Source: an uncultured Gemmatimonadaceae bacterium (GTDB lineage Bacteria > Gemmatimonadota > Gemmatimonadetes > Gemmatimonadales > Gemmatimonadaceae). Taken from it: a stretch of DNA of 64,000 nt. Where the stretch lies: contig CAVVTZ010000009.1 in assembly GCA_963751275.1 (NCBI GenBank), forward strand, positions 512,001-576,000. Direction: 5' to 3'. Below are positions 22,601-23,675 of this stretch, in pieces. The position numbers are program-made. Each line of letters begins with the position of its first letter. Position 1 is the first letter of the stretch.

Positions 22601-23675
22601 TTCCTCCTCATCCGGGACAGCTACCAGAACTGGGGATTCCCGAAGGGTCATCTCAAACGCGGCGAGGCGCCCGCCGACGCGGCCGCGCGCGAGACGCGCG
22701 AGGAGACCGGGCTCCATGGACTGGCCCTGCGTGGCGAGCTCGGCGCGATCGATTGGTGGTTCCGTTTCCGCGGCCGCCGGATCCACAAGCTGTGCCACTT
22801 CTTCCTGTTCGAGAGCGCGGATGGGGAGACGACACCGCAGCGCGCGGAAGGGATCACGGAATGCGAGTTCCTGACTACCGACGAAGCCTTGTCACGCCTG
22901 TCGTACGCCAACGCTCGCGATGTGCTGACGCGCCGTCGAACATCGTGAGGGCGCGTCTAGCGACTAGTACCGCTGGAGAGCGCGTCTGGCAACTGAGCGT
23001 ATGGTACGCCAACGCGGGAGTAGCGGCCGCCACTCACGCCTAGGCGTACCATACGCTCAGTTGCCAGACGCGCGGTTACAGCGGTACTAGTTTCTACACG
23101 CGCTCCTTGCAGTTAGGGAGTCCTTGTGACATTTTTCACAAGCTGGAACACGACCTCAATCTGAACTCCGAGTTATGGCCTCCGACTCCGCGCTCCGCCC
23201 CGCCGAAATCAAGGACATCCTCCTCCGCGAGATCGAAGCGGCCGACCTCCACGAGCTCGACGTCGAGCAGGTCGGAACGCTCCTCGAAGTGAAGGACGGC
23301 ATCGCCCGCATCTACGGCCTCACCAAGGCCATGGCCGGCGAGATGCTCGAGATCAAATCCTCCGAGACCGGCGAGACGGTCACCGCCCTCGCCCTCAACC
23401 TCGAAGAGGACAACATCGGCGCCGTCGTCCTCGGCGACTACCTCAAGCTCCGCGAGGGCGACGAAGCCCGCCGCACCAAGCGCGTGCTCGAAGTGCCCGT
23501 CGGCCCCGAACTCGTCGGCCGCGTCGTGGACGCGCTCGGCAATCCGCTCGACGGCAAGGGCCCGATCAACGCCAAGCTCAGTCGCAAGGTCGAGTCCCCG
23601 GCGCCGGGCATCATCGTCCGCCAGCCGGTGAAAGAGCCGCTCCAGACGGGCATCAAGGCGATCGACTCGATGATC

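Follow-up and report, generated by a model that had tools for sequence, protein, structure and literature searches.

The F-type ATP synthase genes of the uncultured Gemmatimonadaceae bacterium studied here are divided between an F1 operon and an F0+delta operon, and the sequence evidence indicates that both are very probably repressed by Rex, with one operator on the F1 promoter at positions 23124..23141 of the window (the whole 64,000-nucleotide stretch of DNA that was analyzed) and a second operator on the F0+delta promoter. In the mechanism proposed, Rex dimers would occupy both operators at low NADH/NAD+ and damp transcription. The atpA operator would cover the -10 element and the start region of the atpAGDC promoter, and the F0+delta operator would cover the -35 element and the spacer. 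Repression would consist in occlusion of RNA polymerase and be lifted by NADH, as expected from the established biochemistry of Rex (PMC5355995). A rise in NADH would release Rex, and both halves of the ATP synthase would then increase together with a small respiratory regulon comprising rex itself, a cupredoxin lipoprotein, an operon of the alternative-complex-III (ACIII) type in the family of the window and, more weakly, clpX.

The predicted operators, their putative promoters and the F1 locus

The predicted operator (23124..23141, assigned to neither strand) reads TTGTGACATTTTTCACAA (TTGTGAC-ATTT-TTCACAA), an 18-bp palindrome with perfect 6-bp arms and one mismatch to the Rex consensus TTGTGAA-N4-TTCACAA, and 33 nt separate its end from the ATG of atpA at 23175. 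This near-consensus palindrome confirmed the predicted Rex operator that the initial annotation had placed upstream of atpA; the consensus is printed in PMC5355995, PMC6391272 and PMC5317091, the last being a paper on Caldithrix. A scan of the whole genome (3.1 Mb) at no more than one mismatch retrieved exactly four sites, the number of strong sites claimed before. These were C9:535124, upstream of atpA; C7:617553, 21 nt upstream of the first gene of the F0+delta operon (atpZ/I-like, ATG at 617592); C11:32455, 13 nt upstream of the start of rex, between rex and the divergent arcA; and C7:129652, upstream of a cupredoxin gene, which was absent from the sites named previously. The two atp sites each depart from the published consensus at a single position. 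When scored with a weight matrix built from 223 sites of relatives, the four sites reached 29.7-35.0 bits, and the next one, at the clpP-clpX junction, 19.5. Sites with no more than two mismatches occurred in 7 of 10,377 tiles of 300 bp from this genome and in none of 1,620 shuffled atpA upstream regions.

Both boxes overlap putative sigma70-type promoter elements, as expected for a repressor site. Upstream of atpA, a putative -35 hexamer (TTGCAG, 23107..23112, forward strand) lies 17 bp upstream of a putative -10 hexamer (CATTTT, 23130..23135, forward strand), which falls inside the operator and corresponds to TAnnnT in most relatives. Box positions 7-12 read TAnnnT in 54 of 77 genomes, and in 66 of them TT stood at the distance expected of a -35, compared with 101 of 924 control positions. 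At the F0 operon, the left arm TTGCGA doubles as a putative -35 hexamer, and 75 of 80 boxes show a TAnnnT at 16-18 nt past this arm. This overlap, with the -35 at F0 and with the -10 at atpA, would account for the single fixed mismatch of each box. Moreover, the first ATG or GTG of the F0 operon lies 6-14 nt past the predicted -10 across the order (also at L001:5554-5600), which suggests that the first F0 gene is nearly leaderless or leaderless.

The F1 operon lies on the forward strand and encodes the following subunits: alpha (atpA, 23175..24760, matching NCBIfam atpA); gamma (atpG, 24764..25627, above the TIGR01146 cut-off); beta (atpD, 25669..27088, start approximate); and a short form of epsilon (atpC, 27097..27354, above the TIGR01216 cut-off). 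This epsilon subunit of 85 residues matched the first 84 of the 130 profile positions, and the C-terminal part is missing. A Nudix hydrolase gene (22526..22948, forward strand) stands upstream of atpA in the place of atpH and marks the split point. The F0 genes on C7 are the atpZ/I-like gene, a second small membrane gene, atpB, atpE, atpF and atpH, followed by an unrelated gene. The reading frame of atpA changes near 24023 and again near 24247, so that the gene runs through three frames, and atpD carries one frame change near 26048; further single-base frame changes of this kind occur in atpH and elsewhere, as expected from errors of long-read assembly. Contigs of relatives (other strains) lack one base at 24020-24021 and one at 24245, and the breaks in atpA are probably assembly errors. 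A pseudogene is unlikely, because atpD, atpH and other genes are frame-shifted too and the extra bases are missing in the relatives.

A dispersed palindromic repeat of 150 bp (22951..23103, assigned to neither strand) lies directly upstream of the promoter and outside the operator. It is a near-perfect palindrome with a predicted RNA fold of -127 kcal/mol (z = -14), and it belongs to a REP- or MITE-like family represented at 47 loci across 8 contigs of the genome. An Rfam search of the hairpin returned no family near its gathering score, and with this result and the dispersed copies the hairpin was rejected as a regulatory RNA of the atp genes. The contig of one relative aligns to the window only from 23120 onward, so this copy of the repeat may be a recent insertion. 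The repeat may also insulate the atpA promoter against read-through from upstream.

Distribution and proposed history of the two boxes

Conservation was assessed in 121 genomes drawn evenly from the phylum in a single draw: 83 belong to the order (including that of the window), 19 to other orders of its class and 19 to further classes. Rex status was assigned by protein identity and not by sites, which gave 92 genomes with an ortholog (at least 49%), 9 with a distant Rex (31-37%) and 20 in which Rex was not found. Within the order, atpA and atpB were each present in 81 of 83 genomes, every such upstream region was examined, and a box was counted when it had no more than two mismatches within 300 bp upstream. 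The counts for the order include the genome of the window and the unpublished genome G057, and no conclusion hinges on either.

Among the Rex-bearing genomes of the order, the box preceded atpA in 76 of 77 (66 of them at no more than one mismatch) and the F0 operon in 66 of 76 (61 at no more than one). Both boxes were present in 65 of 75, which bears out the proposal that each half of the ATP synthase is headed by one, and 9 of 75 retained the atpA box alone. These counts agreed with those of the initial annotation, except for its statement on unsplit operons discussed below. The extension of the pattern across Gemmatimonadales held for two families and failed in part of the third, f3: in an extra draw of 21 f3 genomes, 19 with atpA, the box was found in 6 of 19 at no more than two mismatches and in 9 at no more than three, and in genus g40 of this family it preceded atpA in 0 of 7 genomes while rex was kept in 8 of 8. 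Dual control, as predicted from the boxes, prevails in two families, yet it can be lost. An F0 box with two mismatches was also present in two genomes lacking the Rex ortholog, G099 (rex not found, 98% complete) and G116 (distant Rex only).

The separation of the F0+delta and F1 genes described before was upheld throughout the order. In all 79 order genomes with both genes, atpA and atpB were unlinked, lying on different contigs in 73 and at 0.25-2.07 Mb from each other on one contig in 6, and no atpH hit was obtained upstream of atpA in the 80 order regions scanned. The two genes were adjacent in 18 of 18 other members of the class and in 15 of 16 genomes from other classes, and the unsplit order is described as the likely ancient one (PMC4154653). 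The previous statement that an unsplit operon goes without the box did not stand, because, of the 12 class members outside the order that bear Rex and have an unsplit operon, 11 carried a box at F0. No box preceded atpA in any of 14 unsplit operons; both unsplit sets include the unpublished genome G097, on which no conclusion hinges. Since the unsplit relatives carry the box at F0 and never at atpA, the simplest reading is an ancestral box at F0 and the gain of a second one, at atpA, with the split. The alternative that the atpA box is older than the split was rejected on the same 14 operons.

The order formed one clade in an AtpA tree (SH-aLRT 96), in which genomes with the box surround the rex-less genus; this tree came from a quick search of 63 rows, with six partial rows, including the frameshifted gene of the window, left out. 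A scheme in which f3 is basal and the split came first and the box later was rejected, as f3 branches inside the order and the box occurs in several f3 genera. In two genomes (L186 of G106 and L207 of G058), the unsplit atp operon is preceded by two boxes, or by a box and an extra right arm, in tandem.

The history proposed starts in the class ancestor, with a single box before the entire atp operon; in the ancestor of the order, the operon would have broken between atpH and atpA, and the new atpA promoter would have borne a box of its own. The purpose of this arrangement can be read in two ways. We propose tentatively that the fission may have been viable through the placing of the new atpA promoter on a Rex operator, and that both operators may since have been kept for the proportion of F0 to F1 under redox shifts. 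It has close to an even chance, on the other hand, that Rex binds both sites while the two operons are mere members of a respiratory regulon and the F0/F1 balance is set elsewhere, a reading that is compatible with the dual Rex control advanced here and differs from it in purpose alone. The genomes that retain the atpA box alone, the lack of this box in g40, the presence of this box on other respiratory genes and the splitting of atp loci at many junctions in other phyla (PMC4154653) are in keeping with simple membership. Against it, the atpA box is the best conserved after that of rex itself, and its absence before atpA in all 14 unsplit operons argues that it appeared with the split and was kept since.

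The probable reader of the box

The Rex protein of this genome is intact and scored above the cut-offs of NF003995, NF003992, NF003993, NF003996 and NF003994. It combines a winged-helix domain (PF06971) with an NAD(H)-binding domain (PF02629), and its nearest solved structures are those of Thermus Rex (PDB 2dt5, 3ikt, 1xcb and 3il2; E about 1e-53 over residues 3-205). The QVRKDLS helix, the GxGY wing and the GxGxxG motif were all matched in the alignment to Thermus Rex, which serves as a structural model only and is silent on the regulon of gemmatimonads. The named nearest relatives of the protein are mostly bins of Gemmatimonadaceae or Gemmatimonadales. Of the 30 best rex loci, 29 showed a box before the gene, as did all 79 named loci that had a flank (1 of 80 had no flank), and these two sets may overlap.

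Across the 121 genomes, the sites follow the rex gene. At least two sites with no more than one mismatch were found in 89 of the 92 genomes that carry a Rex ortholog, in none of the 9 with a distant Rex and in 1 of the 20 with none, that is, in 1 of 29 genomes without an ortholog; the losses of rex amount to few events (perhaps 2 to 4) and related genomes are not independent, so these figures describe a pattern and are not a statistical test. The single exception, G054, carries both atp boxes, and its contig ends 133 bp past ksgA, the usual place of rex. In G109 and G112, ksgA abuts arcA, which amounts to a clean deletion of rex. In the genus of these two genomes, none of 9 members had the Rex DNA-binding domain, and 8 matches to a relaxed pattern were obtained against 5 for a control. 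In a second rex-less genus, which belongs to another order, the domain was found in 0 of 19 genomes and a single site in 2 of 19. Sites in both genera were at background level, and their sampled members retain the promoter hexamers. In rex-less G063, G109, G112, G061 and G079, the F0 promoter has kept its -35 and -10 and lost the TTCACAA arm. The arm is therefore not a need of the promoter, for it was lost with rex while the F0 hexamers persisted. The box is conserved upstream of orthologous genes and depends on the presence of rex, genus g40 being the exception, and Rex is likely its reader.

The initial annotation had raised the alternative that a protein of the Crp family could read a similar site. 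A Crp/Fnr-family protein, HcpR-like and recognizing TGTGA-N6-TCACA, would then act at these sites alone or together with Rex. That core is present in the boxes, and the genome encodes, at C10:50003, a Crp-like protein with an R-E-T-V-S-R recognition helix carrying the R/E/R recognition residues. Moreover, HcpR1 and Rex of Desulfovibrio are said to bind identical sites (PMC5701242), and this motif had originally been attributed to a Crp-type factor (PMC545781). Crp-like proteins that are 60-61% identical and have the same helix persist, however, in the rex-less genomes G063, G109 and G112, where no sites were found, and one of the two rex-less genera retains the Crp-like protein as well. Furthermore, rex is itself preceded by the box, conservation over 223 pooled sites is 81-99% at the outer TT/AA and the inner A/T, and the sites overlap core promoter elements instead of lying upstream of them. 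Rex is favored over Crp because the box tracks the rex gene and not the Crp-like gene, and a role of the Crp-like protein, alone or with Rex, appears improbable. It is still harder to believe that the boxes are conserved merely as a promoter shape shared through a sigma factor and mimicking a palindrome: although the left arm at F0 is a -35 and the box centre at atpA a -10, so that the promoter accounts for part of the conservation, the TTCACAA arm lies in the spacer at F0 and past the -10 at atpA and is still 97-100% conserved, and this right arm is the very part that went with rex.

The wider predicted regulon and known Rex systems

Several other genes of the order carry the box that Rex likely reads. 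Among the 30 best-scoring loci for each gene, it preceded the cupredoxin gene in 20 (at no more than one mismatch) and a multiheme cytochrome c gene in 21. At one locus read further, the multiheme cytochrome gene is followed by a subunit of the molybdopterin-oxidoreductase type, and this gene content suggests an operon of the ACIII type. The ACIII-type cytochrome gene was not found with one query in the genome of the window, which is 83% complete. Sites with one mismatch precede clpX in G104 and G010, and in the genome of the window a two-mismatch site (G000:C7:750438, L004) overlaps the end of clpP and precedes clpX; a box at nuo was a single observation (G067).

The site at G000:C7:129652 (L003:5653-5670) heads a lipoprotein gene of the plastocyanin/azurin family, with a helix-turn-helix regulator gene in divergent orientation. 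The close homologs found for this cupredoxin (E <= 1e-22) all came from the order, and its gene lies 10-17 kb from the multiheme cytochrome gene in several f2 genomes, f2 being another family label. Two genomes from separate lineages, G110 and G064, contain 32 and 30 dispersed operator-like sites at no more than one mismatch, compared with a median of 4, and these apparently represent a much enlarged Rex regulon; one such site precedes a GH3 glycoside hydrolase gene. A CRISPR or tandem repeat was rejected as their source, since the sites are dispersed and their centres variable.

Control of ATP synthase by Rex is of a known kind. In Streptomyces avermitilis, Rex is reported to bind and repress the promoter of atpIBEFHAGDC, on the evidence of EMSA, ChIP, footprinting and a mutant, within a regulon of atpIBEFHAGDC, nuo, cyd and rex-hem (PMC5355995). 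The predicted gemmatimonad system shares with S. avermitilis the repressor family, the consensus, an operator that covers the -35 at an atp promoter (footprinted in S. avermitilis), autoregulation and targets in aerobic respiration. The two differ in that S. avermitilis has one unsplit atp operon with one operator, whereas gemmatimonads have two operons with two operators, the second on a -10; the other gemmatimonad targets, cupredoxin and the ACIII-type operon, also differ from that regulon. Respiratory proteins of Streptomyces coelicolor are likewise listed in a Rex regulon (PMC7244524). The predicted Rex regulon of Desulfovibrio, cited from RegPrecise, includes FoF1 ATP synthase operons (PMC5322295), and the ATP synthase genes of Desulfovibrio vulgaris form two loci, DVU0774-0780 and DVU0917-0920 (PMC3114432). 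Desulfovibrio is alike in both respects and unlike in that its split separates c from b (PMC4154653) and not delta from alpha, and in that its regulon serves anaerobic sulfate reduction. The delta/alpha split is shared with Chlorobi, and the passages that describe split atp loci neither treat regulation nor settle how species manage with a divided locus (PMC4154653).

The effect of Rex on the atp genes may be modest: limited oxygen lowered atpI of S. avermitilis whether or not Rex was present (PMC5355995), and many predicted targets in a rex mutant of Desulfovibrio alaskensis changed less than 2-fold or not at all (PMC4045070). In the titles and abstract openings searched, no earlier description of a gemmatimonad Rex regulon was found; RegPrecise, the main comparative paper and supplements lay outside this search and may hold an earlier prediction. 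The novelty implied by the initial annotation is overstated, as Rex control of atp genes was reported in S. avermitilis and predicted in Desulfovibrio. The gemmatimonad case extends current knowledge and does not overturn it.

In conclusion, an abundant and little-studied soil lineage gains a small, precise and testable regulon of energy metabolism, consisting of the two ATP synthase halves, cupredoxin, the ACIII-type operon and rex. The findings touch the open question of how a split ATP synthase locus is coordinated; here a single ancestral operator would have been supplemented by another where the operon broke. If the fission was indeed enabled by the operator on the new atpA promoter, the Gemmatimonadales would offer a datable conversion of an operon into a regulon, with the lineages that lost rex as natural controls.
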